Source of the DNA: Candidatus Latescibacterota bacterium
Lineage (GTDB): Bacteria; Latescibacterota; UBA2968; UBA8231
Assembly: GCA_965243025.1 (NCBI GenBank)
Contig: CBDETY010000003.1
Coordinates: forward strand, 5,408,001 to 5,472,000
Length of the DNA: 64,000 nucleotides
Direction of reading: 5' to 3'
Shown piece after piece: positions 18,331 to 40,291 of this stretch (positions within the stretch are counted from its first letter, which is position 1; each line of letters begins with the position of its first letter). The notes beneath the pieces are model-generated. The model had not been told where the DNA came from, made no database searches, and was given only the letters and a program-made list of their open reading frames with translations. A program made the translations under genes and the position numbers.

Positions 18331-19851
18331 CTACAGCCGTTGTCGCAACTTGCGCGCACGCTCGATCAGCCGCCGGCTGTCCTCGGCCCTGCCCAGCTTT
18401 CTGTAAGCGTCGCTGAGATAGATCAGGGCGCGCTCGTTTTCGGGGTCCAGCTCCAGCGCCCTCTCGTACGCGGCTGCCGCCTCTTCAAAGCGACCCAGCT
18501 TGAAGTGAGTAATCCCGATGCCAACCTGGGCTTCGAAATAGTCCGGGCGCAGCTCGAGCGCCCTGGTAAAATGACCGATCGCCTCCTCTGCCTCGCCCAT
18601 GCGGGCCGTGATCAACCCGAGGCTGCCGAACAGTTCGGGAATGGTGCTGTCGAGGCGGGCGGCGCGCTGAAAGGCCACGCGTGCCGCGGCCAGCTCGCCG
18701 AGGCGGAGGTAGACCTCGCCGAGACGCATATGCCCAACCGGGTCCGTGGGCTCCAAGTCGGCGCTCTTCTGCAAGTACACCGCCGCTTCGGAGAGCCGGT
18801 CCTGCTCGCTGAGAACGAGACCGAGACCGGTGTTGGAATCGCGGTGGTCGGAATCGATCTCGACGGCGCGCTGAAACTCCAGCAAAGCCTGTTCGAGCTC
18901 TCCGGCGAGCATGTGTTTCAAACCGAGGTGGTAGTGGTCTCGCAACGTCCCGATAGAGATCATCGGACCGGCGGGCGGTGTGATCTCGGTATGCAGCCCC
19001 TGCATCTGCCGTCGCAGCTCTTCTGACCTCTTGAGCTCGCGGTGGCCCTCGTCGCGGCGGCCCGTGAACATGTAGAGGTTCCCCAGAATGAGGCGCAGCT
19101 TCGGGGCGCGGGGATTCAGCTCCGCCGCCCTTTCCGTCACCTCGGCGGCTTCCTCGTACCTGCCCAGATCGCGATAAGCCAGTCCGAGCCGGTAGAGGGC
19201 TTCTGCATCAGTAGGCGCAAAGGAAGTGGCTTTGGCGAAGGATGTGGCGGCCTCTTCGGCCAGCCCTCTGTACCTGAGGATGCGGCCGAGCTTCTTGTGG
19301 GCCTGCGCCATCGTCGAATCCACTGACAGGGCGGCGCGGAAGGCATGCTCGGCAAGACGCGTGCTGTCGCGATACCCGTGCATGACCCCGAGGTTGTAGT
19401 GCGGTGAGGCGCGCTCCGGGTCCAGTTCGATCGCATCGCGAAATGCGGCAATGGCGTCTTCGGCGTCCTGTTCCTGGATTTCAGTCCAGGCGCGGGCGGT
19501 GTAGCGGGCGGCGTGGATCGACCCGTGAATCTCGTGCAGGTCGGCGCGTCTGGGCGCCAACGACAGCGCCTTTTCGATGGCGTCGTGCGCCTCGCCGTAT
19601 TTTCCCAACCCCAGCAGAGTTCTCGCTAGGTAGCTGTAGGTGACGTAGTGATTGCCGCCGGCGCTCTCGGCAGTGCGCAGGGCTTGCAGGGCAGCGGACA
19701 GGTCGCCGGCAACGAAATAGCGGACGCCGGCCGCCGTGTCCTCGTCAACCTCGGCATCCCCGCACGACAGGCAGATGGAGCACAGGGTCGAAAACAGCAG
19801 CAGTCTGCGGGGCGACAGGGGAGACCGACTACAGGTGTGGGAAACGGACAA
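18331..19851 (-). CDS. Tetratricopeptide-repeat protein, probable lipoprotein
   Basis: About a dozen TPR-like units (e.g. HYNLGVMH, AYERALELDPEN); lipobox-like CLSC after a hydrophobic stretch. Confidence 0.85.
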   Translation of the reverse strand: MSVSHTCSRSPLSPRRLLLFSTLCSICLSCGDAEVDEDTAAGVRYFVAGDLSAALQALRTAESAGGNHYVTYSYLARTLLGLGKYGEAHDAIEKALSLAPRRADLHEIHGSIHAARYTARAWTEIQEQDAEDAIAAFRDAIELDPERASPHYNLGVMHGYRDSTRLAEHAFRAALSVDSTMAQAHKKLGRILRYRGLAEEAATSFAKATSFAPTDAEALYRLGLAYRDLGRYEEAAEVTERAAELNPRAPKLRLILGNLYMFTGRRDEGHRELKRSEELRRQMQGLHTEITPPAGPMISIGTLRDHYHLGLKHMLAGELEQALLEFQRAVEIDSDHRDSNTGLGLVLSEQDRLSEAAVYLQKSADLEPTDPVGHMRLGEVYLRLGELAAARVAFQRAARLDSTIPELFGSLGLITARMGEAEEAIGHFTRALELRPDYFEAQVGIGITHFKLGRFEEAAAAYERALELDPENERALIYLSDAYRKLGRAEDSRRLIERARKLRQRL

Positions 19852-20108
19852 GCGATCCTCTCGCGACGAGTCGAATAAGATATCTCCAGAATCGCATTCG
19901 CGGAATTGACCGCTCAGGGGCGCCTGGTATGTTCAAAGCATGCGCCGTCTGATGTACCTCAACACACCGCACAAGGGAGGATCTGCCGAGCTTAGGTTTT
20001 GCCGAGCCGGGTCCAGGCCGGCCGCAAAAGCGACGCCCATCATTTCCGCAGTGGCCGTCGCAAGGATACGGTGAAGGCCGTCAGAGGAGCAAGTCCGTGT
20101 ATCCAAAG

Positions 20109-20208
20109 CGATTAGGGCTGGATCTGCCCCTCGATTAGGGCTGGATCTGCCCCTGTGTAGTACGTTGTGAAAGTTATCGGTGTGAAGTACCTTGTGAAAG
20201 TGATGGGT
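20109..20208. repeat. Two adjacent tandem duplications (2x23 bp perfect; 2x27 bp imperfect) in a divergent intergenic region
   Basis: cgattagggctggatctgcccct x2 (20109-20154); gtgtagtacgttgtgaaagttatcggt / gtgaagtaccttgtgaaagtgatgggt (20155-20208). Confidence 0.9.
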
Positions 20209-20229
20209 GCCGCTCACTGGAGCCCTTCT

Positions 20230-22203
20230 ATGAGAATCCATCCCTCATTCGCCGGCCTGCTGACATCGCTTTTCGTCCTCTCCGCATATCCGGCTGAAGC
20301 CCTCACCGTGTATCGCATCGGGGGCGAAGACCTTCCGCGTCCCGAAATCGCCGATGAACCGGGCGTCGATTTCGTACAAATCCCGTGGGACGATGTCGAT
20401 GACGACAAGTTCGGCGGCGCCAACCAGGTCGCCACCGAGGGCAGCCTGCAACCGCAGCAGCTCGATCCCAGTGTCAACCTGACGCCGCTGATCCGCGGCC
20501 TGGGGGGCTTCATCAAATCGTCAAATGGGTACGGATGGCGGGACGAAGACCTGCTCGATCTCGCCTTTGACGGCGACTACGACACGGCGTACAGCGGAAT
20601 CGGGAGCGAGTTCTCCCTCAACTGCGGAGACTGGGACGCAGTGCCCAGGTGCAAGGCAATCTGGGTAAAGTTCAACGGCATGTTTCCGATACGGCGCATC
20701 GTTCTGCAGCCCACGCCGGAGCGCGCGACGGAGCGCTTCATCCCCGATTTCCGGATCGGGACCACTGACGCTCCGGTGGAGCGCACGCTGACGACACTCC
20801 AGCTCGACCTGAAGCACGGCGCCAGGGATATGTACGTCGAATGGCGGGATGGGCGTAGAGTCTACTTCGACGAACAGTTCGACGTCCGCGAAAACAGAGA
20901 GCCCCTCATCGACCTCGAGCTTTCCGACAAACCGATATCCGAGTTGATGTTCGTGGCCGAAAGTGCGGTCAACTGGGAAATCGCCGAATTCGAGATTTAC
21001 GGCGACGGCTTCGCTTCGCAGGCGAGTTACTCGACCAACATCATCGACCTGGGGCGCAGCGCCAGCCTCGGCGATCTGACCTGGTCGGGAAGCGTGGACG
21101 ATGGCGCCCATGTCAATCTGACAATGCGCACAGGCGATGACGAAGACCCGAATTTCTACTGGCGTCTGACCTTTCGCGGAGATGAGCGCACCCGCTTCGA
21201 GACCGGCGGAAAAGAGCTGAGCCGCAAAAACTACGGCAGGCTCGAGGGGGGCGAGAAGGCCGGGATCAGTCCCGACACGGAGAACTGGGAATTCTGGAGC
21301 CCGCCGGTGAATTTTGAAAAGGGCGAGGCGGGGATTGTCGCCGACAAGCCCAGGCAGTTTGTGCAGTTCAAAGCCGACTTCACCTCCACGCGGGCCCAGG
21401 CACGTGCCGCGGTGGAGTTCCTCCAGTTCAACGTTTCCAGCCCGCCAGTCGCCAGCCAGGTGCTCGCCGAAATCGCGCCGACTCGAGCGCGCCTGGGCGA
21501 GATCACAACCTTCACCTACAAGATTCTGCCCGAGCTCGACGAAGACAATCTCGGCTTCGACAGCATAGAGATCTCCACGCCGATTGCGCCGGCGAGCGTC
21601 GACGCGGTGCGCATCGGCGCGCAGTCGTTAGGACAGTCCGAGTTCGAAGTCGGGGAGTACGACGGCGAGAGTTTTGTCGTCAAAATTCCGCATATCGACC
21701 TGCAGAGCTCGGGAGAGCTGATTGAAGTCGACTTCCGGAGCGAAGTCTTCAAAGTGGGCACTGTTTTCTCCGGTCGCGTGTTCGACAGCTCGCTGCCGAG
21801 CGAGGTGCGCCAGCGCGTGACCGAGGGAGACGCCGACCCCGTCGCAGAAGGCAACACGCTCAGCGTCGACCAGATGAGTCTCGGCCAGGACGCCATTCGC
21901 GCACTCAGGGTGTCGGCTCTCACACCGAACGGCGACGGCGTCAACGACGTCCTCGAGATCGAATACGACCTGGTGAATCTCTCAGGCGACGTCCCGATCG
22001 CCATCGGGGTGTACGACCTGGCGGGGAGCCAGGTGGCGGAGATAACGGCCGGCAACAGCGGCAGTGGCCGCTTCACCACCACCTGGGACGGCCGCGATGC
22101 CGCGAATGCCGTGCTGCCACCGGGGCTGTACCTGCTGCGTCTGGAAGTCGAGGCGGACCGCGGTACCGACATTGCCATCTCTACCGTACCGATCGTCTAC
22201 TGA
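20230..22203 (+). CDS. Secreted protein with C-terminal 'TPNGDG.ND' + FlgD-Ig domain (T9SS type-B-like tail), class I
   Basis: Signal peptide ending AEA; FDGDYDT jelly-roll-like motif; WEIAEFEIYGDGF; tail LTPNGDGVND...YDLAG...WDGRD...PPGLY. Confidence 0.78.
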   Translation: MRIHPSFAGLLTSLFVLSAYPAEALTVYRIGGEDLPRPEIADEPGVDFVQIPWDDVDDDKFGGANQVATEGSLQPQQLDPSVNLTPLIRGLGGFIKSSNGYGWRDEDLLDLAFDGDYDTAYSGIGSEFSLNCGDWDAVPRCKAIWVKFNGMFPIRRIVLQPTPERATERFIPDFRIGTTDAPVERTLTTLQLDLKHGARDMYVEWRDGRRVYFDEQFDVRENREPLIDLELSDKPISELMFVAESAVNWEIAEFEIYGDGFASQASYSTNIIDLGRSASLGDLTWSGSVDDGAHVNLTMRTGDDEDPNFYWRLTFRGDERTRFETGGKELSRKNYGRLEGGEKAGISPDTENWEFWSPPVNFEKGEAGIVADKPRQFVQFKADFTSTRAQARAAVEFLQFNVSSPPVASQVLAEIAPTRARLGEITTFTYKILPELDEDNLGFDSIEISTPIAPASVDAVRIGAQSLGQSEFEVGEYDGESFVVKIPHIDLQSSGELIEVDFRSEVFKVGTVFSGRVFDSSLPSEVRQRVTEGDADPVAEGNTLSVDQMSLGQDAIRALRVSALTPNGDGVNDVLEIEYDLVNLSGDVPIAIGVYDLAGSQVAEITAGNSGSGRFTTTWDGRDAANAVLPPGLYLLRLEVEADRGTDIAISTVPIVY

Positions 22204-22295
22204 GCTGTCCATGAACCTCCCCAATAGGTTCACATGGCGCACGAGCGGTGTAAGCCCGTGCGCCATTGTTCTTCCAAGAGACAACTGACTCGCTC

Positions 22296-23939
22296 ATGCA
22301 CTATCCCGTTTTCTCCGCCGCATGCGCGACGTTTCTCACGCTGGTGAATCCCTGTACTCCTGCCGTCGGGCAAGTGGCCGTGCTGGCGACGGTGGGGCAG
22401 GAGCAAATCGTCCCCGAAGATCTGAGAAGATTCGCCAGCTCACTTCCCCAGGGGTTTAAGCAGAGCAAAACGGGATTCGCCGCCGACAGCCTGTTGCTCG
22501 AGAGCCTCATCGACAGGACGGTGTTGGTAAAGGAGGCCGAAAATGCCGGTATCGACGACGAGCCCTGGCTCGATGTGCACATGCAGCGCTACGAGCGCGA
22601 GCAGGTACTCCTGCTCTACAAGCGTCTGGAGGTCAACGGCAAGGTCGAGATCACCGAAGAGGAGCTCATGGCGCAGTTCAAAGCCTCCGGCAGGGATCGC
22701 GCTTTGCGCATCGCCGGCATCCTGGTCGAGACCGAAGAGGAGGCGGCGCAGCTGAGAAGCGAGATTCTGGCAGGAGCTGACTTCGCCCAGCTTGCCAGAG
22801 AGCGATCGCTGTACGAGGAGGCGCGCGATCGCGGAGGGGACATGGGCCGCTACATGAGGAAGGACGAGACCTCGGGATTCCTCAAGGAAGCGGTGTTTGC
22901 CCTCGAGCCGGGAGAGATCACGCAGCCGCTGCGCTTCCTCTACGGGAAGAAGTGGCGCTACACCATCATCAAGATACTCGACGAGATCCCCGTGCCTTTG
23001 AGCGATGTCGAGAACCGGGTCGCCGAACAGGTCTTCGGCCGCAAGCGCGTGGCGCGCCAACAAGCACTGAGCGACTCGCTGCGATCGGAGTACGCGCCGC
23101 GCATTCACCGCGACAACCTCGAAGCCTTTCTCGGGTCTCGCGGCATGAGCGTCGACGAGCTCAAGGCCCTCGGCAAACGACCGCTGTGCAGCTACCGGGG
23201 CGGCCGGGTCACGGTGAACGACTTCTGGATGTTCGTACCCGAAGGCAAGAGAGACCCCGAGCGCTTGAAGGGCGTCGATCCATTCGCCGATTTCCTGCTC
23301 GAGGTCGTGGTGCCCTCACAGCTGTTCATCGAGGAGGCCCGTGCGGCCGGCTTATACGAGAACGCCAAAGTACTCGCCAAGGTCGAAGCAGAGAGGTACT
23401 CGGCGATGCTCGACACGCTGCGCATTCGCAGGGTCGACAGTCAGGTCACGGTCAGCGACGACGAGGTGCGCACCTTCTACCGCGACCACCCCGATCTGTT
23501 CATGTCCCTGGAAGAACTGGTTGTGAATGAAGTTCTCGTCGGCTCGCTGGAAGAAGCGCGGTGGATCCGCGCCCGGGCCGAGGCGGGCGATAGCATGGCG
23601 GAACTGGCGCAGGAGTACACCCTGCACGAAGAGATGGCCGACCACGATGGCACGGTGAAGATCAGCAAGTACAGCCATCACAGACAGCTGTACGAAGCCG
23701 CCAAGGGGGCGGACCCGGGGTCGGTGCACGGGCCCGTGAAGACCGGGGAGGGTTTTTCGGTATTCAAGGTGCGCGAGCGCACGGAATCGACGCTCAAACC
23801 CCTGAACCAGATCGAATACCGCCGCGCCAAGGCATTCGTCAAGATCCGCAAGCGCAAACTCGCCTATGTCGAGTACGTGCGCGAGTTGAGGGGCCAGTAC
23901 GAGGTAGCGGTATTCCACGATCGCCTGCGGCAATTGTAG
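22296..23939 (+). CDS. Parvulin-type peptidyl-prolyl isomerase chaperone (SurA/PrsA/PpiD-like) with two rotamase domains
   Basis: VLATVGQEQI; ILVETEEEA...GADFAQLARERS...GGDMG...VFALEPGEITQP; second domain VLVGSLEEA...GPVKTGEGFSVFKV. Confidence 0.85.
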   Translation: MHYPVFSAACATFLTLVNPCTPAVGQVAVLATVGQEQIVPEDLRRFASSLPQGFKQSKTGFAADSLLLESLIDRTVLVKEAENAGIDDEPWLDVHMQRYEREQVLLLYKRLEVNGKVEITEEELMAQFKASGRDRALRIAGILVETEEEAAQLRSEILAGADFAQLARERSLYEEARDRGGDMGRYMRKDETSGFLKEAVFALEPGEITQPLRFLYGKKWRYTIIKILDEIPVPLSDVENRVAEQVFGRKRVARQQALSDSLRSEYAPRIHRDNLEAFLGSRGMSVDELKALGKRPLCSYRGGRVTVNDFWMFVPEGKRDPERLKGVDPFADFLLEVVVPSQLFIEEARAAGLYENAKVLAKVEAERYSAMLDTLRIRRVDSQVTVSDDEVRTFYRDHPDLFMSLEELVVNEVLVGSLEEARWIRARAEAGDSMAELAQEYTLHEEMADHDGTVKISKYSHHRQLYEAAKGADPGSVHGPVKTGEGFSVFKVRERTESTLKPLNQIEYRRAKAFVKIRKRKLAYVEYVRELRGQYEVAVFHDRLRQL

Positions 23940-24019
23940 CCACATAACCCGTGACAGAACAGTGCGTTATCGACGAGCAGTCGCGGCTTGTCAAAGCCTG
24001 ACAAATCAACGACTTTGTA

Positions 24020-25108
24020 CTAGTGTTGTGTCGCAGAGATTCGTTCGCAAAGTCTCTTGATTTTCGCAAGGATGGAATCGGCCGTAGCCGTCCAGACGAA
24101 CGGGTGTGCGTTGGCGTTCCATTTGGCCGTGTAGCGTTCGATCCGCCCGATGAGCTCTGACACCTTACGGAACGAGTCCCGGCGAAGAGCTTGGCGGGTA
24201 ATGATGCTGAACCAAATCTCCACTTGGTTGAGCCACGAAGCATAGGTGGGGGTGTAGTGAACGTGAAATCGAGGCCGCCGTGCCAGCCATCGCTTGACCT
24301 TGGCATGCTTATGCGTGGCGTAGTTGTCGACGACAAGATGAATATCCAGGTCAGCGGGGACGTTGGCCTCAATGTGGCGCAGGAACTGGAGGAACTCCTG
24401 GTGACGATGACGAGACTTGCACTGGGTCATCACGGCGCCGGTGGCGATGTCCAGTGCGGCGAACAGGGTGGTGGTGCCATGCCGCTTGTAGTCGTGCGTT
24501 ACCCCTTCCACGTATCCCAGTCCCAGGGGCAGCATGGGCTGACTTCGTTCCAACGCCTGGATCTGGCTCTTCTCGTCCACGCACAGCACCATGGCGTGCT
24601 CGGGGGGATTCAGGTATAAGCCGACGATATCCCGTACTTTGTCGACAAAGAAAGGATCGGTGGAAAGCTTGAAGTGCTTGTGTCGGTGGGGCTGCAAACC
24701 ATACGTGCGCCAAATGCGATGAACGGCATCCTTGGTCAGGCCGGTTTCCTCGCCCATGGAGCGCAGCGACCACTGGGTTTGGTCTTTGGGCTTGGTCTTC
24801 AGGGTCTTGTATACCACCTCGGCTACCTGCTCGTCCGTGATCGATCGCGGCGCCCCTGAGCGCAGCTCATCATACAAGCCTTGGAGCCCGTTTTCGAGAA
24901 AGCGCCGGCGCCACTTGCCGACCGTAGCACGCGTCACACCCACCGCGGCCGCGACGGCTTCATTGGGCCAGCCTTCGGCGGCCAGCAGAATAATCTCGGC
25001 TCGCCGCACCAACCCGTGGGAAAGGCTCCGTGATTTGGCCATCGATTCCAATCGTTCCCGGTCCGACGGACTCAGCTCTAACGGCGTTAATGGACGCCCC
25101 GTCACCAT
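24020..25108 (-). CDS. IS630-family transposase
   Basis: HTH N-terminus; [51 protein letters not shown]. Confidence 0.95.
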
Positions 25109-25193
25109 AGGTCTCTCCTTTCAGAAAGAGGATCAAGAGAAACCTACGGCACCTTCAATTGTTTGTACAGTTACTTACACGACAGGACACTAG
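24020..25193 (-). mobile_element. IS630-family insertion sequence, copy 1
   Basis: 1174 bp bounded by CTAG on both sides; imperfect IRs TAGTGTccTGTCG / TAGTGTtgTGTCG; no difference seen from 28699-29872. Confidence 0.95.
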
Positions 25194-25235
25194 TTGAGTA
25201 CCCGCATCGGTGTCTCGACCAATCGGAGAGTGAAC

Positions 25236-30261: not shown

Positions 30262-30367
30262 ACGACCCGAGACCGAAGCCGTTGTTTACCCAGAAAATCT
30301 CGCGGAAATCGAGATACATCACAACTTCCGAGCGTTGCGCTAGCTCCGCGAAGCGAGGTCCCTGGCG

Positions 30368-32617
30368 ATGTTACGGAAATATAACCCCGTCGCCTTATGG
30401 CTGTCGGCGGCACTGGTGCTGGCAGCGAACGCGGCCGCGGTGGCCGTGACCGAAGTGATCGTTGTCGGCGGCGAGGACGGCGCGGCCTGGGAGAGCGGCG
30501 GAGGCGATATACCCGCCACATTGATCCTCAGCGCCAAATCGGTCGAGCACACGAACGCCCCCGGCGGCGTCGTCGACTTCGACCCCCTCGACAGGCCCAA
30601 CTGGATCTTCCCACAGCAAGCGGACACGTCAGACAACATCCTGATAGGGTTTGATTCCGCTGCGCGCGGCGGCAATGTGTTCACGCCGATCCCCTCCTTC
30701 CGGCACCTCGAGAGCGGCTTCTCCAACCTGCACGACAACGACGGTGACACGGCGCTGGAGGTGACAGCCGAATCTTCGGGATCGAGCGCGGGGGCGTTCG
30801 GTCTGATCTTTCAATTCGACCTCGGCGCGATTTTTGGCGTCAACCGCATTCGTTTCTTCCCGCGCAACGCCGCTGAAGACTTTCCCTCGCGTCTGTTCCC
30901 CAATCAACGAAAATTCCTCAAGGGATTCGAGATGTTCGTCAACGACGGATCGCCCGAGTCCATTCGAGACGAATCCCTCATCTGGGAGACGATCGCGCTC
31001 GTGGGCCAGAACGAGGATGCGGTAGTCGATATTCGCATCCCCACCCGGATTGTCCGCCACATCAGGCTGAAGTCCCTGACGCAGACGAGCTTTGAAATCG
31101 CCGAGTTTCAGGTTTTCACCGAGGGGTTCGTGCCGCAGGCGCGCTACGTGTCGAACATTTTCGATTTCGGACAGCAGGCCATTCTCGGCAACCTCCGCTA
31201 CATCGTCGAACAGCAGGGCGACCCGCAGCGATCTGACGTTCAGATCCGCACTCGAGCCGGCATCGATCCCAATCCGGTGGAGTTCACGCGGATCGGGTTG
31301 CAGCCTTCAGGCAGAGTGATAAAGCGCGTTGATCGAGCGAGCCTCGAGCCGGTTCCGATCGACGCGCCGTGGAAGCCGGCGGGGGAAGTGGAAGACGGCG
31401 AGCTATCCGACCTGATCAGCAATGTCCTCGACGACCCGGACGGCGACGGCCGCGAATCGCTGCTGCTCTACAACAGCCTGTCCCTCGAGGATCGCGAGAA
31501 GATCACCCTCGACGAAGACAGCTACTTCGATCTCGACAAAGAGGAGCGCTCGATCATCCGCGACGACCTCACCAACTGGAGCCCGTGGTCGCCGCCGTAC
31601 CCACTCACGGCCGTCGTAGGCGACACCGCGCTCGGCGAATCGACTGCCGGGACCGCGATCTTCGCCTCCGGTCCGCGCCGCTATTTCCAGTTCATGGCCG
31701 AATTCTCCAGCGAGACCTTCGACGCCGGGTCCGGGGTCGGGGCGCTGGCGTTCGACGTCTCGCGCCCGGCATTCGCCGACTCTCTCATCGCCGAGATCTT
31801 TCCGCGCGCCAGCACCTCGGGAGCGGAGACCGATTTCACGTATGCCGTCCTCTACACGAGCAAGGGCGCCGATATCGGTTTCGACCGGCTCCAGATCACC
31901 ACGCCGATCAAGACGCGCGAGATCGGGCTGGTCCAGTTCATCGCCACCGACGGCTCGGTCCAGAGCGAGGCCGATTTTACCGGCGTATCTCTCGATCAGC
32001 TTCCCATATCTCGCGGTGATGTGACGGTAACGGAGGTCACAGACGAAGACTTCACGCTGTCCTTCCCCCGCGTCGAGACCAGCGGGACCCTGTTGAAGGT
32101 CGCGTTCAAGAACACGGTGCTGAGGGTGGGCACGCGCTTCGCCGGGCTGGCGCTGAATTCCGATGATCTCACCTTCGGCCAGCCGGTAGAAGCGGGGAAC
32201 GCGGCGGATCTGAGCCTGCCGGAGCTGCAGGACCCGGACACCGAAGCGATAGGGACGACGATCACGAGCAACCTGTTCGTCGACGTACCGGTGATAGACG
32301 CGCTGTTGATAAACGTCTCGGCGGGCTCGGGGATCTTCACGCCGAACGGAGACGGCATCAACGACATCGCGCAGATCGAGTACGACGTCACCAATATCGC
32401 CCGCCTCACCGAGGTCACAGTCACGATATTCGATCTTTCCGGGAGAAGGGTGAGATCGTTCACCCAGTCCCAGGACAGCGGTCGTTACGCCCAGGAATGG
32501 GACGGGCGCAACGCAGCCGGCACCACCGTGCCGCCGGGCACCTACCTGTACCTCGTAGCGCTCGACGCGGGAACCGGCTTCGAGAAGGTACCGGGGGTAA
32601 TCAGCGTCGCGTACTAG
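30368..32617 (+). CDS. Secreted protein with C-terminal 'FTPNGDGIND' + FlgD-Ig domain, class III
   Basis: Signal peptide; FQFDLGAIFGVNRIRFFPR; FEIAEFQVFTEGF; WSPWSPPY; tail FTPNGDGIND...FDLSGRRVR...WDGRN..VPPGTY. Confidence 0.78.
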   Translation: MLRKYNPVALWLSAALVLAANAAAVAVTEVIVVGGEDGAAWESGGGDIPATLILSAKSVEHTNAPGGVVDFDPLDRPNWIFPQQADTSDNILIGFDSAARGGNVFTPIPSFRHLESGFSNLHDNDGDTALEVTAESSGSSAGAFGLIFQFDLGAIFGVNRIRFFPRNAAEDFPSRLFPNQRKFLKGFEMFVNDGSPESIRDESLIWETIALVGQNEDAVVDIRIPTRIVRHIRLKSLTQTSFEIAEFQVFTEGFVPQARYVSNIFDFGQQAILGNLRYIVEQQGDPQRSDVQIRTRAGIDPNPVEFTRIGLQPSGRVIKRVDRASLEPVPIDAPWKPAGEVEDGELSDLISNVLDDPDGDGRESLLLYNSLSLEDREKITLDEDSYFDLDKEERSIIRDDLTNWSPWSPPYPLTAVVGDTALGESTAGTAIFASGPRRYFQFMAEFSSETFDAGSGVGALAFDVSRPAFADSLIAEIFPRASTSGAETDFTYAVLYTSKGADIGFDRLQITTPIKTREIGLVQFIATDGSVQSEADFTGVSLDQLPISRGDVTVTEVTDEDFTLSFPRVETSGTLLKVAFKNTVLRVGTRFAGLALNSDDLTFGQPVEAGNAADLSLPELQDPDTEAIGTTITSNLFVDVPVIDALLINVSAGSGIFTPNGDGINDIAQIEYDVTNIARLTEVTVTIFDLSGRRVRSFTQSQDSGRYAQEWDGRNAAGTTVPPGTYLYLVALDAGTGFEKVPGVISVAY

Positions 32618-32694
32618 CACGCCGGCAAACCGCGCCACACGCCGAACCCGGCAGCCAGCCAGACCGGATTAGCCAAATACAGGGAGGGTCTGTC

Positions 32695-35505
32695 TTGCAC
32701 AGCCATCGTAAAGGTCGAGGAGGCGAACTGTACCGCTCGCTCCTGGCCGCTTGCCTGGTGCAGTTCGCACTGAGCGCAACCGCATTCGCCCAGGACTACG
32801 GCAGCCGCCTCGGGGTGCAGCGCGGAGGCAGTGTGAGCTTCGAGCCTACCGGGCCGGGAGTAATTTTCGGGGCACTGGACCCGACGGTGCGGCGATGGTA
32901 CGTGCCGCAGGAGTTATACAATGAATATGGCTGGCGGCAGTGGGAATACTCCAACTACGCGCGTCAGCCGTACCAGCGGTACGTCAGCACCAATCTCGAG
33001 GGCGGCTACTTCTACGACCTCTTCGGCGATTTCGTCAGCCGCGGCTGGCTGATCTACGACTGGCGCCAGGACCAGCCCGTCAAAGAGGGCAGCAGCATCT
33101 TCAAAGGCTCGAACTTCAACGGCTTCTTCAGCAGCCTCACCGTGAGCAGCGACTCCCAGGGGCAGTACGCGTACGCCATCACCGTCGGCAACCGGATCCG
33201 CAGCACGCTGACGCCGATGACGTTCTCGAAGCCGAATTTCAACGGCGTGCAGATAGACTTTGCCGCAGACAAGTACTCGGCCACGGTCCTCGCTTCGCGA
33301 ATCAGCGACCCCGCCGAGGGCACGACCCTGACTCCGAGGCAGTGGACCAACTCGACGAGCCTCGTAGGGGGGCGGGCGACCATCCAGGTGGGCGACTTCA
33401 TAACCGTGGGTGGAACCCTGGTCGACGCCCGCAACGCCAACACCTCTCTCGACATGTTCTCGGGCAACTTCATCGCCGGCAACCTGACGTCGGGGCAGAG
33501 CAGCACCCCCGTATCGGCGATCGCCATCGTGCTCAGCGACGACTCTCCCGAAGACGGGGAGGGAGGCGCCGCTCTCTTCAGCCACGACATCCGCGTGCGC
33601 ACCAAAGACTTCGAGTCCGGTCTCGAGCAGGTGCTGACCCTCGAACAGGTCGTGCGGCCGGGCGCCGAGTGGCCGGCTATCTTCGGCGGATTCCAGCGCG
33701 AGGGGTTTCTCGCCGCTGACGGCAACGAACGCGTCATCCTCAACTACGACTTCACGGACCCCGCCTACATCGGGCCCGACCTCACGAGCATAATCGACGT
33801 CGAGTTCGAATACCTCGTCGCCAACGATTACAAGATTCAGATGTGGTCGAACCGGCAGACGGGCCGGCGCGACACGCCGCCGTCACCGCTGACGAGCGCC
33901 GTCATCGACGAGTCCGAGCCGGTGCTGCTGACCATCAAGCGCGCCGGCGGCAACATCAAGGACATTTCGAATGTGCGCGTCGTGAAGTTCAACTACGGAC
34001 TGCCGACGGCGAACCTGATCGGCGGTTTCACGATCGAGGGCAAGGACGTGCTGGGGTGGGACTTCTACGGCGAGTGGGACCGCAACAAGCGCTACTCGCA
34101 GTACCCGAACGCGGCCCTGTTCGCCGCCGACGAGGGACATGAGATCTCCTCTGAGACGTCCGAAGCGACCCTGTTCACCATCTCCAAGCAGGAGTACCCC
34201 TACTTCGCCTTCGGCGAGTTCTACTCGATCGACGGCGACTACTCGACCAGCGCCTTCGTCACCGACGCGGAAGGCCAGCTGCGCTACGACTTTCCCCTGC
34301 ATCACGTGTACGAGTTCGTCGAGGACAACGACGACCAGGACAGCCGGCCCGACTGGGCGCGCGTCGGCAACCAGTCGGTCGACAGGCAGGTGTTCCCCGG
34401 TTGGGACGAGAACAACGACTTCATTTCCGATTTCAACCAGAATGACAACGCGTCAGTGCCTAACATCGTACCCGACTACGACGAGCCGTTCCTCAGGCAC
34501 TACGTAGACCGCCCCGAGTTCCTGTTTGGCATCGACCTCAACAACAACGGTTGGATCGACCGCTTCGAGGACGACGAGCTGCCGGACTACCCGTACAAAG
34601 CCGACCGCCGGGGTTACAACGTCTTCGCCGGGTTTCATCTGACGCCGGAATCCCGCGTCTTCGCCGGCCGCGTAGACGAGCGCATGTTCACCGACGATCG
34701 CGACAACCGCACGACGTACGGCATGTTCACCTTCGACAAGGACTACGCCGGCCTCGGCAGGCTGCGGATCTTCGACATGCTGAAGCGCGTCGAAGACACG
34801 ATCCCCGAGGATCGCCGAGCTCCGGCGCCGTTCCGCACGGCGCCGGCCCAGCCGCTCGTCAACGACATCCTCCCGGCGCCCGACACCTGGGTCAACACCG
34901 CCTGGATCGGCTTCGACTACACGGCGATTCCTCGGCTCAAGCTGATCAACAAGCTCAAGTACGAATTCTACAATCACGCCCAGGACGATCCGCGCGACAT
35001 CGACGGACGCCAGCTCCAGGGCGTCACCAACTTCTTCGGCCTCATCAACAAGGTCGAATACAACTACGCGATCGGCGCTCTCGAGCTGCAGCCGAAGCTC
35101 AAGAGCGAGCTGCTGAGCCAGGAGTCGTTCGCCAAGGAGGACGACGATCGCCGTCACTGGACCGGGCTGGCGACGCTGCTGGCTCAAGTGCCCGTTTTGC
35201 GGCGCAGCTCCATCACCGCCGGTGTCGAGCTCGCGCAGTTCGCCGACAGGGAGATCGACGAGGACGAGCTCGTCGACACGGGTCAGGCAGGGGAGACGGG
35301 AGATCAGCGCTCGGCCATCTTCGCGCTGCAGCTGAACAACCTGTCACAATACCTCGGGTACCGGTTGACGACCCAGGTCGGTCTGCGCTTCGGCCGCATT
35401 TTCCGGGAGCTCGTCGAACAGACCGAGCCGGGTGAGTACAAGAAGAAGTTCGAGGGGCGGACGGAGACGACCAGCTTCATAACGATCTATGCGGGAATCG
35501 AGTGA
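32695..35505 (+). CDS. Large secreted hypothetical protein, predicted outer-membrane beta-barrel with Ca-binding-like loops (paralog 1)
   Basis: GGGAGG RBS + TTG; signal peptide ending AFA; many amphipathic strands; DNDDQD, DENNDFISD, DLNNNGWID loops; terminal strand TTSFITIYAGIE. Barrel topology is inferred. Confidence 0.65.
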   Translation: MHSHRKGRGGELYRSLLAACLVQFALSATAFAQDYGSRLGVQRGGSVSFEPTGPGVIFGALDPTVRRWYVPQELYNEYGWRQWEYSNYARQPYQRYVSTNLEGGYFYDLFGDFVSRGWLIYDWRQDQPVKEGSSIFKGSNFNGFFSSLTVSSDSQGQYAYAITVGNRIRSTLTPMTFSKPNFNGVQIDFAADKYSATVLASRISDPAEGTTLTPRQWTNSTSLVGGRATIQVGDFITVGGTLVDARNANTSLDMFSGNFIAGNLTSGQSSTPVSAIAIVLSDDSPEDGEGGAALFSHDIRVRTKDFESGLEQVLTLEQVVRPGAEWPAIFGGFQREGFLAADGNERVILNYDFTDPAYIGPDLTSIIDVEFEYLVANDYKIQMWSNRQTGRRDTPPSPLTSAVIDESEPVLLTIKRAGGNIKDISNVRVVKFNYGLPTANLIGGFTIEGKDVLGWDFYGEWDRNKRYSQYPNAALFAADEGHEISSETSEATLFTISKQEYPYFAFGEFYSIDGDYSTSAFVTDAEGQLRYDFPLHHVYEFVEDNDDQDSRPDWARVGNQSVDRQVFPGWDENNDFISDFNQNDNASVPNIVPDYDEPFLRHYVDRPEFLFGIDLNNNGWIDRFEDDELPDYPYKADRRGYNVFAGFHLTPESRVFAGRVDERMFTDDRDNRTTYGMFTFDKDYAGLGRLRIFDMLKRVEDTIPEDRRAPAPFRTAPAQPLVNDILPAPDTWVNTAWIGFDYTAIPRLKLINKLKYEFYNHAQDDPRDIDGRQLQGVTNFFGLINKVEYNYAIGALELQPKLKSELLSQESFAKEDDDRRHWTGLATLLAQVPVLRRSSITAGVELAQFADREIDEDELVDTGQAGETGDQRSAIFALQLNNLSQYLGYRLTTQVGLRFGRIFRELVEQTEPGEYKKKFEGRTETTSFITIYAGIE

Positions 35506-38456
35506 TGAGTAGCTGCGCGCGAATTCCTGGAGCAGTTGCCTTCGCGGCGCTGCTCCTCGGCACCGCCGAGATCGAAGCCCAGCAGGACTACGGGACCCGC
35601 CTGGGGTCCCGGGTAGGCGACCGCCAGTTGTACAGGGCGTCCGGCGTCTACAGCTACATGGATGCCCTTGATCCCACTGTCCAGCGCTGGTACCTCGCGC
35701 CCGTTCACTTCAGCCAGTGGGGCCGGCAACAGTGGGAGTACACCAACTGGGCGTCCCGCCGCCAGCGGCGTTACGTCGACGCCGGACTCGAGGGCGATAA
35801 CTACTACGACTTCTTCGGCGACAGGATCACCCAGGGATGGCTCGTCTACGACTGGCGCCAGACGCAGCCGGTCATCTCCGAGGCATCGCGGGTCCGCAAG
35901 GCGAGCCGCTACAACAACTGGTTCAATCGCCTGGTCATCGCCCAGGACCTGAGCGGCGGCCGCGGTTTCTCGTTCGTGCTGGGCGACGAGATCCGCACGA
36001 CGCTGACCCCGATGACCTTCAGCAAGGCCGGTTTCAACGGGCTGGTGACCGAGTACACAGGCGAGCGGTTTCACGCCACCGGTCTGTTCTCGCGCGTGTC
36101 GCGCCCCATGATCAGCGGCGGCACCGGCATTTTTCAGAGTTGGACGAACCTCGCTGCCGGGCGCGCCACCGCCGACGTCACCGACTTTCTCACTCTCGGT
36201 GTCACCTACATCAACGCCCATCACGGCACCGGCTCGGCCGAGGCCTTCGAAAGCAACGCCTTCAAGGGCATCCTGAACGCCGAGCAGCTGTCCGAGCGAC
36301 TCGGCCTGCTCGCGCTGCGCCTCGCCGACGACTCACCCGAAGACGACGAGGGCGGGGCCATTCTCTTCAGCGACGACATCGAGATCTCGACCACGCTGAC
36401 GCGGGAGACCGAGGTCGACGGCGAGATGGTGATGGTCGAAACGGACACGGTGTTTTCGGCCAACTCCGTCGAGTTTCGGCCTCTGATCGAAGGGGGAAAG
36501 CTGCAGCAGGGCTTCCTCACGGCTGACGGCGCCGAAGATATCGTGATGAAATACTTCTTCGCCCCCGAGGAAGGCCAGGACGAGTCGTCGACGCTCAGGG
36601 CCAAGCTGCAGCAGCACCTCGGCCTGACGCTCGACGAGGCGGAGAACGCGATATCGGCGATCGAGAACGTGCGCTTCCGCCTGGTGCTGGCGAACGACTA
36701 CCTGGTGGAGATGAGCTCGAACAGGCAGACCGACCTCTTCGGCGTGCCGCAGTTTCGCGTCGTAACGCGGGCCGACGGCAACATCAAGAACCAGCTGAAC
36801 CAGCGCGAAGTGGTTTTCGACTACGGTATCCCAACGGCAAACCAGATATTCGGATTTACTACCGAGATCCGCGATTTTCACGGGGTCGATTTTTACGGCG
36901 AGGTCAATGTCAACACCGAATACCGGCAGTACCCCGCCATCGGCCGCACCAAACACAAGGCCCTGTCGGGCATCGAGGGCGACCGCAACGCCCTCGGATG
37001 GATGGCCAATCTCTCCTGGAAAGAGGGGCCCTGGTCGGTGTTTGCCGAGGGTTTCGGCATGGACGACGGCTATTCGACGAGCATCAAGCCACTGCGCGAG
37101 AGGGGAACGACAGATTACTCGCCCGAAGCGACCAACCTGCTCTACGACTACGTCGACGACAACGACGACAACGACAGGCACCCCGATCAGCTGCGGGTCG
37201 GCGAGGGCAGCCTGATCCCGCAACGCATCTTTCAGCGGGCCTCGAGCATCGAACTGCGGGGTACCGCCGATCCCGAAGTGTTCCCCGGGTACGACGAAAA
37301 CGGAGACTTCATTTCCGACTTCAATCAGAACAACCTGTTCGACCGCAGGAACTTCTTCCCCGATTACGAAGAACCCTTCCTGCGCTACCGCAGCGACCGA
37401 CCCGAGTTCCTGTTCGGGATGGACCTGAACAACAACGGCTGGGTCGATCGCTTCGAGAACGACGACGAGCCCGACTACCCCTACAAGAAGGACCACTGGG
37501 GCTACAACGTATACGGCGGCGCCGAGATCACGCCGGCGGCGAGATTTCGCGTGGGTCAGCTGCGGCAGGAGATGGAAAAGAGCGAGCGCGAAAACAGGAC
37601 GACGTACGCCATGGTGAGCATGGATGAAGACTTGGCGCAGTGGGGCCGGCTGCGGGTGTTCGACATGCTCAAGAGGACTCAAGACGACATCCCCGATCAC
37701 CTGGTGCAATGGGTCATGCCCCGGGCCGAATTCGGCGCTGCTTCCGAGTCGAGCGGCCGCCTCGAGGCGATTCAAGACCCGCTCGCCGCAGAGGACACCT
37801 GGATCAACACGCTCTACGGCGATTGGAGATACGAAAGCCGCAGCGGGTGGTCGACGTTCCACCGTTTCAAGTGGGAGACCTGGCGGCAGCAGGATGTCGA
37901 CGTCGAGTACCAGCTCGACGATGCCGGAGAACGCGTACTCGACGCCGACGGCGAGCCCATCGTGCTGTTCGACCCACTCGGCCCCGAAGAGCGCAACGGT
38001 CGCAAGACCTCCGGTTTCTTCGGTATCATCAACAAACTCGACCACGTGTTCTTTCTCGGGTCAGTGCGCGTGGATCCGCGGTACAAGAGCGAGTACTTGA
38101 GGGAGACGCCGTTCAGCCTCGGTCTCGACAAGAGGAAGTCATGGGATAACCTGTTCATGCTGCTGACCAGCGTACCCGCGTTCCGGGCCACCGTGTTTCA
38201 AGTCGGCCTGGAACAGCGCTTCTTCGTCAACCTCAGGGGGGACGAAGACGATTTACCGGCGGGCGACTTCACCGGTGACTTCCGCGGCTCCGTGCTGGCC
38301 CTGCAGCTGACTAACAAGAGCCAGTACCTCGGCTACGACCTGACCACCCAGCTCGGCATCCGGCTCGACCGCCGTTCTCTCGAGGTAGTCGATGGCGACC
38401 GTGAAACTCAGACATCGGGACTCTCATTCCTGTCAATTTTCGCGGGGCTCCGATAG
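35502..38456 (+). CDS. Large secreted hypothetical protein, predicted outer-membrane beta-barrel (paralog 2)
   Basis: Overlaps the stop of paralog 1; shares QDYG.RLG, ALDPTV.RWY, TLTPMTFSK..FNG, DLNNNGW.DRFE motifs; ends SFLSIFAGLR. Confidence 0.65.
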   Translation: MMSSCARIPGAVAFAALLLGTAEIEAQQDYGTRLGSRVGDRQLYRASGVYSYMDALDPTVQRWYLAPVHFSQWGRQQWEYTNWASRRQRRYVDAGLEGDNYYDFFGDRITQGWLVYDWRQTQPVISEASRVRKASRYNNWFNRLVIAQDLSGGRGFSFVLGDEIRTTLTPMTFSKAGFNGLVTEYTGERFHATGLFSRVSRPMISGGTGIFQSWTNLAAGRATADVTDFLTLGVTYINAHHGTGSAEAFESNAFKGILNAEQLSERLGLLALRLADDSPEDDEGGAILFSDDIEISTTLTRETEVDGEMVMVETDTVFSANSVEFRPLIEGGKLQQGFLTADGAEDIVMKYFFAPEEGQDESSTLRAKLQQHLGLTLDEAENAISAIENVRFRLVLANDYLVEMSSNRQTDLFGVPQFRVVTRADGNIKNQLNQREVVFDYGIPTANQIFGFTTEIRDFHGVDFYGEVNVNTEYRQYPAIGRTKHKALSGIEGDRNALGWMANLSWKEGPWSVFAEGFGMDDGYSTSIKPLRERGTTDYSPEATNLLYDYVDDNDDNDRHPDQLRVGEGSLIPQRIFQRASSIELRGTADPEVFPGYDENGDFISDFNQNNLFDRRNFFPDYEEPFLRYRSDRPEFLFGMDLNNNGWVDRFENDDEPDYPYKKDHWGYNVYGGAEITPAARFRVGQLRQEMEKSERENRTTYAMVSMDEDLAQWGRLRVFDMLKRTQDDIPDHLVQWVMPRAEFGAASESSGRLEAIQDPLAAEDTWINTLYGDWRYESRSGWSTFHRFKWETWRQQDVDVEYQLDDAGERVLDADGEPIVLFDPLGPEERNGRKTSGFFGIINKLDHVFFLGSVRVDPRYKSEYLRETPFSLGLDKRKSWDNLFMLLTSVPAFRATVFQVGLEQRFFVNLRGDEDDLPAGDFTGDFRGSVLALQLTNKSQYLGYDLTTQLGIRLDRRSLEVVDGDRETQTSGLSFLSIFAGLR

Positions 38457-38597
38457 GAGTCTTCTCTCCAAGTTATTGATTTTGTTCAATTAATGTGTAA
38501 ACATTCAAAATGCACCACATCTTCGTTCAGGATCTGCTACATCGGTATTAGAAATTGCTTGACCTGCCGTGTATAAATCAGTACCTAGTAGCTCTCT

Positions 38598-39382
38598 ACG
38601 GGGATCTCAGCGAGTGGGACATCATTCCCCCCGAGCTGTGGATCACCGAGCAGGACGTCGTCAACAGCTCCGACAGGGTGACGGCCTACACCGGAGACAT
38701 CGATGTCTCCTCCATGTCCTTCCGCTGGGTGCTCAGCTGGAACGACGAGACCAATCGCATCTACTTCGGCTACGAGCGCTTCGACGACAAGCACTGGGGC
38801 GGCGGCGAGCACTACGAGGGCGCCATGGACGCCGACCATAGCGGCGGTACCTTCTGGGATATCGAAGGTATGACCGACGAGGAGGCCCAGCGCCAGCGCG
38901 GTCGCCATGCCCAGATTTTTGGCTGGCATTTCGACTGGGAGGAGAGATGGTCGAACAACTGGATGACGCAGGCCGACTGGTACGACGACCCGCTGTATAC
39001 CGACCACGTCCACCGCGTCGAGGGCGTTCCTGGATCGACTGACGAGACCCGCCTCTTCGCCGAGTGGTACCAGATCTACTGGGACGACTTCAACTGGGAA
39101 GATCCTGAGGGAAGCATCGTGCACGAATTCGAAGACGATCAGATCATCGGCTACAGTGCTCACGTGTACGATAAGGACGATGCTTACGAAGACGAAAACG
39201 GCGAAACCAGAGAAGACTGCAACTGCCACTCGCGCTGGACCCTCAGCCCGAACGTCGAGTCGTTCGGCAATGCCGACTACCTCGCCGACTTCCTCATTCT
39301 GCCGATCGACGACAGCGCCAATTTCGTCACGGCAGTCGAAGAAGACAGCTGGGGCAGAATCAAGGCTTCGCTGGCCAAATAA
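38598..39382 (+). pseudogene. 5'-truncated duplicate of the CBM9/DOMON-like SWGRIK-tail gene
   Basis: 38598-39487 matches 53636-54525 with no difference seen; lacks RBS, signal peptide and first ~45 codons. Confidence 0.88.
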
Positions 39383-39405
39383 TCAGGCTGGCACAGCCGA
39401 TCATG

Positions 39406-39442
39406 AGGGATGGATCCGATTACCGGGTCCATCCCTTTTTTT
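39406..39442 (+). terminator. Intrinsic terminator
   Basis: gggatggatccg-attac-cgggtccatccc stem followed by T7, just after stop codon. Confidence 0.88.
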
Positions 39443-39500
39443 CGTACATTTCGCGGTATCTCGGTGTCTACGCGAAGCACGAACGGAATCAGGTATTACT

Positions 39501-40291
39501 ATGGCTAAACTGACGATGGGGGCGTTCCTAACTAATAGCCTCATGGCTGGCTGGCTACAGTCAGGTCGACGCACTGACCATTTACCGCCTCGGCGGAGAG
39601 GATCTCCCCGCGCCGGAAAAGGCAGAAGAGGTCGGTGTCGACTTCGTTCAGCTGATGTGGGAGGACCTCGACGAGGACCAGTTCGGTAGCGCTCACCAGC
39701 TCGAATTGACGGGATTTGCCGAGCCGGTGCGACTCGACCCCACCGTCAACCTCACGCCGCTTCTCAGGGACCGGGGCGGCGTGGTCAAGTTGAACAACTC
39801 GTACTCCTTCCTCGATCACCCCTCACTGGACTTTCTGTTCGACGGCGACTACGACACCGCCTTCTCCGGGCTGCGGGGGGACCAGAGCGGGAGCGCCTTC
39901 GTCAAATCGATCTGGTTCGGCCTGGGCGGTCTCTTTCCCATCAGCCGGGTGGTGATTCAACCGACAACCGACCACCACCACGACCGGTTCATTCCCGAAT
40001 TCACGTTGGGAACCAACGACGGGGACGAAAAGGAAGAAGGGGACCCGCGAAGGGAGTTACTGGTTTCGCGGCCGCTTCGTCGACTTCGAGATCCGGTTTC
40101 ACCGCAAGGAAAACACCGAATCCGTCCTCGACCTGCACCTGCCCGACGAGCCGATCGAGAACATGTATTTTCTGGCACCGTCGGCAAACTGGGAGATCGC
40201 CGAGCTCGAGATCTACGGCGACGGCTTTGCCTCGCGGGCAAACTACATCTCCAACATCGTCGATCTCGGTGGGCGCTCGAGCCTGGGCAAT
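39501..40291 (+). pseudogene. Frameshifted, 3'-truncated paralog of the class I FlgD-Ig protein
   Basis: MAKLTMGAFL/IASWLAGYSQVDA-LTIYRLGGEDLP (CTAA duplication at 39528-39535); second shift near 40030; WEIAELEIYGDGFASRANYISNIVDLG; ends at 40291. Confidence 0.85.

Follow-up and report, generated by a model that had tools for sequence, protein, structure and literature searches.

A multiplied module of tailed secreted proteins and giant predicted outer-membrane barrels in Latescibacterota

What kind of system is encoded at positions 18331-40291 of a 64,000-nucleotide stretch of Candidatus Latescibacterota DNA (assembly GCA_965243025.1, contig CBDETY010000003.1, positions 5,408,001 to 5,472,000; hereafter the window)? 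A preliminary description, made from the letters alone, had proposed an undescribed secretion or surface-assembly system at this site, and the analysis reported here did find a conserved, dedicated outer-membrane module that is not described in the literature and family searches. The module consists of one to five secreted multidomain proteins with a distinctive C-terminal tail (TAILs) and, directly downstream, one to three large predicted barrel proteins (BARs), often translationally coupled. To these it adds, usually, a double parvulin resembling SurA and PrsA and, often, a stand-alone protein with a CBM9 fold. A TAIL is made up of a discoidin-like domain at the N-terminus, a conserved core and an Ig-like domain at the C-terminus with the type-B T9SS motif (F)(T/S)PNGDGxND. 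The module belongs specifically to Latescibacterota-type bacteria, where it has multiplied heavily. The genome of the window is that of an uncultivated marine bacterium, in which the module is repeated about twenty-fold.

The gene set of the window was taken from the listing of open reading frames (ORFs) and from Pfam and NCBIfam family scans. Three TAIL genes lie on the forward strand: TAIL A (20167-22203, 678 amino acids (aa)), with a signal peptide, a discoidin-like N-terminal domain, the shared core and a type-B-like C-terminal domain; TAIL B (25194-27908, 904 aa as listed, the true start probably being a Met 14 codons in); and TAIL C (30368-32617, 749 aa), of the class found directly upstream of the barrels in related loci. 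Signal peptides are present on the TAILs, and a common core and a tail of the form FTPNGDG(I/V)ND ... WDG ... PPGxY align across all three, which bears out the earlier claim of three secreted paralogs with a common core and a PNGDGxND tail. The tails match two families, FlgD_ig and CHU_C (PF13585), the latter being the type-B signal domain of T9SS (the type IX secretion system). TAIL A scored 35.1 bits for FlgD_ig and 31.4 bits for CHU_C (cut-offs 27); TAIL B scored 37.6 and 26.8 bits, the second just under its cut-off of 27, with a weak F5_F8_type_C match (26.5 bits) besides; TAIL C scored 37.3 and 45.2 bits, with TIGR04131 at 33.0 bits against a cut-off of 35. CHU_C is above cut-off in two of the three TAILs of the window. 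Relatives of the TAILs in the Atlas have no domains other than FlgD_ig, CHU_C and F5/8 type C, and a PDB sequence search with the TAIL-tail profile (A5) found only Ig-like domains of FlgD and C5a-peptidase, in the tail region.

Within the last 120 aa, the strict motif [ST]PN[GN]DGx[NQ]D was identified in 50 ORFs of the window's own genome, all belonging to the TAIL family and 32 of them within 10 kb of a BAR; elsewhere in the ORFs of this genome it was found in none. A second tail class resembles the C-terminal domain (CTD) of PorU; for 45 of its places the ORF was recovered, mostly with an NPFN motif (a hallmark of type A) and on large, varied proteins, and only six of the 45 are near a BAR. 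Very large proteins (up to ~3200 aa) with FlgD_ig or PorU-CTD-like tails and NPFN, unlinked to any BAR, are encoded, for example, at C3:5937695-5947288 and C3:234781-243813. One BAR locus contains an 1842-aa ORF (C3:5086297-5091825, reverse strand) with a TAIL-like tail, which aligns at a sub-cut-off 260 bits to the first 730 positions of the PorU sortase profile. Fusions of TAIL and BAR were looked for in the own genome and none was found, the long ORFs being upstream over-extensions.

The two BAR genes of the window follow on the same strand. BAR1 (32695-35505, ~936 aa) has TTG 32695 as its start codon, preceded by a GGAGG-like site, and its signal peptide is clear. The TGA with which it ends overlaps the start of BAR2 (35502-38456, 984 aa) at 35502/35505 and, because of this overlap, the gene arrangement suggests that translation of the pair is coupled. 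The two proteins are 38% identical over their full length, in agreement with their earlier description as overlapping paralogs of ~940-980 aa. Neither has a Pfam or NCBIfam match, even at E<=5 for Pfam. The AlphaFold2 (AF2) model of BAR2 (56 homologs; pLDDT 70, pTM 0.68) contains ~28 long strands by DSSP count, over residues 147-984. The N-terminal 150 residues are conserved but unmodelled; also unmodelled is an acidic, DxNxD-rich insert (residues 556-652), with the invariant D/N motifs FPGYDENGDFISDFNQN and DLNNNGW.DRFENDDEPDYPY. A search with the N-terminal 125 residues among shorter proteins gave six matches, all lacking Pfam domains and apparently fragments, and revealed no family in which this region stands alone.

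Foldseek analysis of the BAR2 model gave 71 matches at E<=1e-3, and all those listed to that E-value are membrane barrels, as are the VIA matches. The best is SlpA of Deinococcus (7zgx, Z 13.5 with 408 residues aligned; 8ae1, E 8.8e-8), while MtrB, LptD, ushers and SusC score Z ~10 (SusC, at Z 10.1, is no closer than barrels unrelated to it); TM-scores are <=0.25 and none of these stands out. BAR2 thus models as an outer-membrane barrel, and the signal peptides together with the ~28 amphipathic strands predicted in the model are those of such a protein. The preliminary description had called the large proteins barrels and named modelling as the check; the model indeed points to a membrane barrel of no known family rather than a soluble fold.

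Could BAR nevertheless be a known family in disguise, such as a TonB-dependent receptor, LptD, an usher or DUF6029, missed through divergence? All barrels look alike in fold searches, and the nearest Pfam-bearing Atlas cluster is DUF6029, a 'TonB-dependent receptor-like barrel', at 0.89. That score is under the 0.9 threshold for a lead and hmmscan gives it no support, so DUF6029 was rejected as an identity for BAR. The 30 best Atlas clusters share no common Pfam family, the silence of Pfam and NCBIfam extends to E<=5, and a 56-sequence BAR profile (A1) finds no solved structure in the PDB, the only row being EGFR at E=1. Neither BAR1 nor BAR2 has a Plug or TonB_dep_Rec match, and 29 other genes of this genome are detected with that Plug profile; nor do they match the PorP/SprF profiles (TIGR03519, PF11751). 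A disguised known family is therefore exceedingly improbable, and BAR is a new family, given no name by the family libraries, the PDB or the Atlas. At E<=1e-3 the 56-member profile recovers 963 cluster representatives among 1.84 billion, and at E<=1e-30 it recovers 319. The named homologs of BAR2 in a collection of 5.8 billion proteins are all 'hypothetical' and without a Pfam domain; they come from metagenome-assembled genomes (MAGs) of Candidatus Latescibacteria/Latescibacterota, with a few labelled Gemmatimonadetes.

Copies in the own genome (6.8 Mb, 62% GC) were identified by a scan of all ORFs of at least 100 aa with phmmer (E<=1e-5), each ORF being classed by its best hit; ORF starts were often over-extended. 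A search with BAR2 hit about 40 places, and 41 BAR ORFs of more than 500 aa fall into 22 loci, ten with one, six with two and six with three or more. The scan gave 110 TAIL-family, 71 CBM9-like and 20 parvulin ORFs in total. TAILs occur within 10 kb of a BAR in 21 of the 22 loci, where 61 of the 110 ORFs lie (expected 9.9). For the parvulins, the corresponding figures are 13 of 22 loci and 14 of 20 ORFs (expected 1.8); for the CBM9-like proteins, 12 of 22 loci and 14 of 71 ORFs (expected 6.4). The four families together account for at most 7.3% of the genome, since the over-long ORFs inflate this figure.

Such abundance, together with the SlpA barrel as the best fold match (Z 13.5 over 408 residues of 7zgx; E 8.8e-8 with 8ae1), recalls a structural envelope or an S-layer-like scaffold built of BAR and TAIL, as SlpA is in Deinococcus. 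The TM-scores of no more than 0.25, the nearly equal scores of other large barrels and the lack of any SLH-type domain in the family scan speak against this; twenty diverged paralogous loci also fit a diversification of ligands better than one lattice. A scaffold of this kind is very improbable.

The module was then compared across 78 loci from 36 MAGs, with one genome per species. These MAGs are mostly labelled Latescibacterota or Gemmatimonadota, and single contigs carry the labels Planctomycetota, Chloroflexota, Bryobacterales, Rhizobiaceae and Handelsmanbacteria (labels as given). As the loci were chosen through BAR and many derive from the same MAGs, they are not independent. A TAIL is present in 78/78, two or more BARs in 53/78, a CBM9-like gene in 52/78 and a parvulin in 51/78. 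In 71 of the 78 loci a TAIL lies on the same strand less than 400 nucleotides (nt) upstream of a BAR, so that the synteny on which the preliminary description had staked its proposal holds in other genomes. Junctions between BARs have a gap of <=30 nt in 38 of 53 cases. The heteromeric barrel pair, taken in that description as a feature of the machine, is not constant: ten of the 22 own loci have a single BAR, and two or more are found in 53 of the 78 foreign ones. An orthologous layout (loci L013-L016 and L021-L023) runs parvulin (reverse strand), TAIL of ~760 aa, BAR, BAR, CBM9-like gene and TAILs of ~640, 650 and 870 aa. Orthologs of TAIL C are located upstream of BAR in related loci, and in the window BAR1 directly follows TAIL C.

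A further gene accompanies part of these loci. At L013:12989-14734, between BAR2 and the CBM9-like gene, and likewise in other loci arranged in this way, a 581-aa protein is encoded whose N-terminal half looks polytopic without a family match and whose C-terminal half consists of TPR (tetratricopeptide) repeats. Neither the window nor L009-L012, its closest relatives, has this protein.

A phylogenetic profile of 121 genomes across the phylum (E<=1e-20) identified BAR in 70 and TAIL in 62; 60 genomes have both, 49 neither, ten BAR only and two TAIL only. Nine of the BAR-only genomes belong to family f10, where the BAR matches are weak, and one to family f7. In family f1 both are present in 40/40 genomes, and in families f2 (29 genomes), f3 (13) and f4 (2) neither was found, all of these having SprA. 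These 44 genomes are of the class of the window genome and provide a natural contrast of with and without. BAR and TAIL travel together as an accessory on a background with SprA throughout; as kin are not independent, this co-distribution is to be read as a pattern and not as a statistic. SprA was identified in 116 of the 121 genomes, above cut-off in 115, including 29/29 of f2 and 13/13 of f3.

In the own genome, the T9SS core genes that the preliminary description had asked after are present above cut-off: SprA (C3:6660469-6665319) at 470 bits (cut-off 200) and two copies of PorU (C3:3585492-3588665 and C3:6052108-6055281) at 621 and 615 bits (cut-off 420). A PorV-like gene adjoins one PorU, below cut-off. 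Neither PorP/SprF (TIGR03519, PF11751) nor GldL and GldM gave a match in this genome; their absence is not established, because the same profiles were silent in every control genome.

Gain and loss of BAR and TAIL together, with SprA present regardless, would suit an autonomous exporter, in which the BAR pair and its own parvulin form an SprA-independent outer-membrane translocon for the TAILs of the same locus. The size of the barrel is in the translocating range, LptD, ushers, MtrB and SprA are among its fold matches, and a dedicated chaperone gene is found in 13 of the 22 own loci. However, the loci have no conserved partner for energy coupling or in the periplasm, the tails of the TAILs resemble T9SS signals in a genome that has SprA and PorU, and some twenty parallel translocons per cell would be unprecedented. 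This explanation is improbable.

How T9SS handles proteins with such tails is known from elsewhere. In PMC9143113 and PMC12618676, type-B cargo of Bacteroidota is described as depending on cognate PorP/SprF barrels, which shuttle and anchor it, and porP/sprF as usually encoded immediately downstream of the gene for type-B cargo. By analogy, the module appears to reproduce this type-B logic: the tails form a special class, the gene that follows directly encodes a barrel, the cognate sets are many, and the genome has SprA and PorU. The reading favoured here is that the TAILs are T9SS cargo and that the downstream BAR is their cognate shuttle or anchor in place of PorP/SprF, which would give about twenty surface complexes with lectin-like domains; it is plausible, if a little short of probable. 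On this reading, the TAILs would cross the inner membrane by Sec, as their observed signal peptides indicate, and the outer membrane via the T9SS translocon SprA, to judge from the presence of SprA and PorU. At the surface they would be received and held by the BAR of their own locus, to which tail type, gene order and co-distribution point. The parvulin may act as chaperone of the giant barrels or of the cargo in the periplasm. The product would be some twenty surface complexes, one set per locus, with discoidin-like and CBM9-like domains as the parts that bind glycans or other polymers.

Several results weigh against cargo reception by BAR. The TIGR04131 match is below its cut-off (33.0 against 35) and occurs in a single TAIL, and FlgD_ig scores in the TAILs are about equal to those of CHU_C. 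BAR has no detectable sequence relation to PorP/SprF and is about three times larger, and the absence of PorP/SprF, which BAR would replace, is not proven, the profiles being silent in all controls. GldL and GldM were not found (with the controls likewise silent), and GldK gave only sub-cut-off domain matches in the own genome, which leaves a working T9SS motor conjectural. Of the core-bearing TAILs, 34 of 91 lie more than 10 kb from any BAR, and ten of the 70 BAR-positive genomes have no TAIL at E<=1e-20. Contact between TAIL and BAR is itself an inference. Finally, the genes that flank the module (DUF6785/DUF6784, enolase-superfamily, SDR, amidohydrolase and sulfatase) suit uptake at least equally well.

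These flanking genes lead to the main rival explanation, that the BARs are substrate-specific import channels, analogs and not relatives of SusC, fed by the TAIL and CBM9-like surface binders as in a polysaccharide utilisation locus (PUL), with many loci for many substrates. It is compatible with the anchor reading. The 22 loci per genome with their variable sets of binding proteins, the discoidin-like and CBM9-fold domains and the wide predicted ~28-strand barrel would all be expected of such a system. The most recurrent unclassified neighbours of BAR loci are polytopic membrane proteins of DUF6785+DUF6784 (17/78 loci; for example L074:3095-5053, L010:12343-14037 and relatives) and FG-GAP/UnbV_ASPIC proteins (16/78). 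Enzymes of sugar-acid type (enolase-superfamily, SDR, amidohydrolase) and sulfatase genes occur in ~5/78 loci each, and an MR_MLE enolase gene lies within the window at 13367-14515. Each of the neighbour enzymes is nevertheless found in a small minority of loci, and a scan of the ten unclassified neighbour families that recur most often showed no glycoside hydrolase. BAR also lacks Plug, TonB_dep_Rec or any TonB-box-like feature, 29 ordinary receptors with a Plug domain are encoded in the genome and could do this work, and import leaves unexplained why one special tail class should be found on the binding proteins of every module. PUL-like uptake is a possibility to be kept in view, if on the unlikely side.

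A combination of the two, somewhat more doubtful still, is that of T9SS-assembled 'utilisomes', in which the giant, often heteromeric barrels would both receive type-B-like cargo, replacing PorP/SprF, and import what the displayed discoidin-like and CBM9-like proteins capture. If true, the SusCD problem would have been solved a second time, by independent evolution, with up to ~7% of a genome devoted to it and a SurA-like chaperone for each module.

The parvulin of the window (22266-23939, forward, 557 aa) is a periplasmic double-parvulin chaperone like SurA, PrsA and HP0175. Matches to Rotamase_2 (71.6 bits) and Rotamase (70.3 bits) in two stretches confirm the two domains read from the letters at first; PDB matches are HP0175, PrsA and SurA, and the NCBIfam equivalogs are all far below cut-off.

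The CBM9-fold protein is represented in the window by an intact copy at 53455-54420 (forward, 321 aa; AF2 pLDDT 79.5) and by a 275-aa ORF at 38555-39382 (forward), a probable pseudogene in this strain. By fold, the first assignment of the gene as CBM9/DOMON-like was right: the intact protein matches the CBM9 of Thermotoga (1i82) with Z 17.6 and an rmsd (root-mean-square deviation) of 2.6 A over 180/189 residues, well above background, and 7nwn with E 1.8e-9 and TM 0.70. The next matches are a putative carbohydrate binder of Bacteroides and then DOMON-type subunits of ethylbenzene dehydrogenase and nitrite oxidoreductase. By sequence there is no Pfam match, including PF06452, at E<=5, no NCBIfam match and no PDB match (A4 profile, E<=10). 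The SWGxIK-tailed protein, counted in the preliminary description as part of the system, has only a loose link with the module: 12 of the 22 own loci and 52 of the 78 foreign ones contain it, and most of its 71 paralogs are elsewhere.

Two features of the CBM9-like family deserve separate record. An invariant His is the first residue after signal-peptide cleavage (AxA|H); Y116, D123, D252 and D254 are invariant, and H141 (DADHSGG) is nearly so. It is conceivable that the N-terminal His forms, with Y116 and H141, a metal site like a histidine brace. Besides, the pattern (T/S)AVExx(S/T)W(G/A)RIKASL is found within the last 20 residues of ~115 ORFs of the genome (120 pattern matches, a few of them chance), against five matches at a control position 40-60 residues from the end. 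Of the C-terminal matches, 68 belong to the CBM9-like family; the others are mostly on proteins of ~300 aa, some of 190-1056 aa. In the window the tail lies at 39340-39382 and 54378-54420. It has the look of a tag for sorting or anchoring at the C-terminus.

The window itself holds an insertion sequence (IS)-damaged, partly decayed copy of the module, one of about 22 in the genome; neither the damage nor the multiplicity had been noticed in the preliminary description. Marks of decay are the insertions of IS630, the truncation of the CBM9-like gene, a TAIL pseudogene and half a barrel. Two IS630 copies of 1180 nt, 100% identical and inverted, at 24020-25199 (reverse; 362-aa transposase, NF033545 275.9 bits, cut-off 100) and 28693-29872 (forward), flank TAIL B and the 5' fragment of a TAIL B paralog (27984-28692, forward). 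This fragment, which contains a 144-aa ORF classed as TAIL, is cut off by the second IS630; direct repeats at 25396-25799 and 28088-28488 (75-77% identity) reflect TAIL B and the paralog fragment. An inverted pair of this kind around TAIL B is a composite-transposon-like or inversion-prone structure; the genome contains 14 IS630-type ORFs. Compared with the orthologous loci, the gene order of the window looks rearranged, plausibly by the IS copies.

Decay has also affected the genes downstream of the barrels. The CBM9-like ORF at 38555-39382 lacks the 5' untranslated region, start codon and signal peptide of the intact copy at 53455-54420, because the block upstream, which is conserved before both copies, jumps straight into the mature protein. 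The deletion is strain-specific, as a related strain, represented by a contig in a public DNA run, has 434 nt at the site where the window has 91 nt. A promoter-like AT-rich region had been described ahead of this gene; a sigma-70 scan of 38300-40400 returned no promoter-like site. The terminator described behind it was recovered as an intrinsic-terminator-like hairpin with a T run (39405-39437, forward; 14-bp stem, eight pairs GC). It is followed by a frameshifted, 3'-truncated fragment (39503-40323, forward), the translation of which resembles the N-terminus of TAIL A; it contains a 222-aa ORF (39655-40323) and was classed as TAIL. Further downstream, a diverged second copy had been described at 51447-54480. 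Its order of barrel and CBM9-like gene is real, but the barrel is partial (51441-53174, forward), corresponding to residues 408-984 of BAR2 at 91% identity; a Y2 transposase fragment (50608-51228) lies upstream of it. With the window copy in this state, an intact locus (for example L013-L016) is the better object for study of the module.

Positions 29880-40400 of the window or close relatives are present in 20 public runs of 11 studies, sponge metagenome and seawater metagenome being among the labels. In contigs of those runs, segments of paralogous barrels are joined to one another at many points, which is probably due to cross-talk of the paralogs during assembly. TAIL C, BAR1 and BAR2 are matched by short, near-identical contigs from one metatranscriptome run (X20), and the CBM9-like gene by a contig of ~95% identity from that run; contigs of an RNA library do not show transcription, and they are not counted as evidence of expression, just as no meaning attaches to uncovered parts.

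Among the remaining genes of the window, a divergent TPR protein (18331-19851, reverse strand, 506 aa) has a lipoprotein-like N-terminus and matches TPR families at E 1e-62. Of the divergent TPR lipoprotein genes described at first, this one stands; the second was not recovered, as 16652-18199 gave a weak DUF3604 match in the family scan. TPR matches occur in 39 of the 78 related loci, the TPR profiles being promiscuous. A DUF3179 protein with a FlgD_ig tail (4354-6045, reverse strand; 44.3 bits), located among Fe-S/flavin oxidoreductase genes, is a candidate T9SS cargo. A 901-aa protein at 47507-50212 possesses a CarboxypepD_reg domain without a TonB-dependent receptor match, and may be an Oar-like barrel missed by the models.

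A literature search found no paper treating these genes, although supplements might hold gene lists; the available parts of PMC4454575 and PMC12993501 make no mention of these families. With up to ~7% of a 6.8-Mb genome and 963 cluster representatives, the module has been left as 'hypothetical' in databases. It ties T9SS-like sorting signals to a new family of giant barrels outside Bacteroidota, and SprA in 116 of 121 genomes contrasts with the description of T9SS as exclusive to Bacteroidota in PMC12618676. If BARs are cargo receivers, the known ways of sorting T9SS cargo become wider; if they are import pores, a new principle of nutrient uptake would exist in a widespread uncultivated lineage. 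The families are defined by alignments (A1, A4, A5), conserved motifs and gene order, and are ready for testing either way.

Comparison with known systems places each component near something familiar. The parvulin is similar to SurA, PrsA and HP0175/PEB4 in its two PpiC-type domains, N-terminal chaperone-like region and signal peptide, and unlike them in the number of its paralogs (20 in the genome, of which 14 lie within BAR loci) and in scoring far below the cut-offs of the NCBIfam equivalogs. The SWGRIKASL-tailed protein shares the fold of CBM9 (Thermotoga Xyn10A, 1i82) and of its DOMON/EB_dh relatives. Unlike CBM9 modules, it is a stand-alone secreted protein and not a module of an enzyme, has no Pfam CBM9 match, and carries the invariant His first after the signal peptide and the conserved C-terminal tag. 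With LptD/LptE, MtrB/MtrA and SlpA of Deinococcus, its top fold matches (Z 9-13.5), BAR shares a predicted barrel of 26-30 strands. It differs from LptD, MtrB and SlpA in the lack of any sequence relation, in TM-scores of <=0.25, in having no LptE- or MtrA-like partner gene and in its own conserved 150-aa N-terminal region and acidic insert.

At the level of the whole locus, the module resembles SusC/SusD PULs in its tens of paralogous loci per genome, each with a large outer-membrane barrel (here a predicted one) and surface proteins like carbohydrate binders, and in that some loci lie beside sugar-catabolic genes and sulfatases. Unlike SusC/SusD, it has neither Plug or TonB-dependent receptor domains nor SusD; its binding proteins are not lipoproteins and have T9SS-like tails, and carbohydrate-active enzymes are not regular in the loci examined. 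From T9SS type-B sets it differs in having several cargo genes per barrel, an added parvulin and CBM9-fold gene, an occurrence outside Bacteroidota and no detected GldL/GldM (controls silent). PorP/SprF barrels are ~300 aa in size, whereas BAR is unrelated to them, has 900-1000 aa and ~28 predicted strands, and often comes as two or three tandem paralogs. With the type-B systems of SprB-SprF and PG1035-PorP, the module has in common a CHU_C-like C-terminal domain with PNGDGxND on the putative cargo, the position of the barrel gene directly downstream, the large number of cognate pairs in a genome and the occurrence of SprA and PorU.

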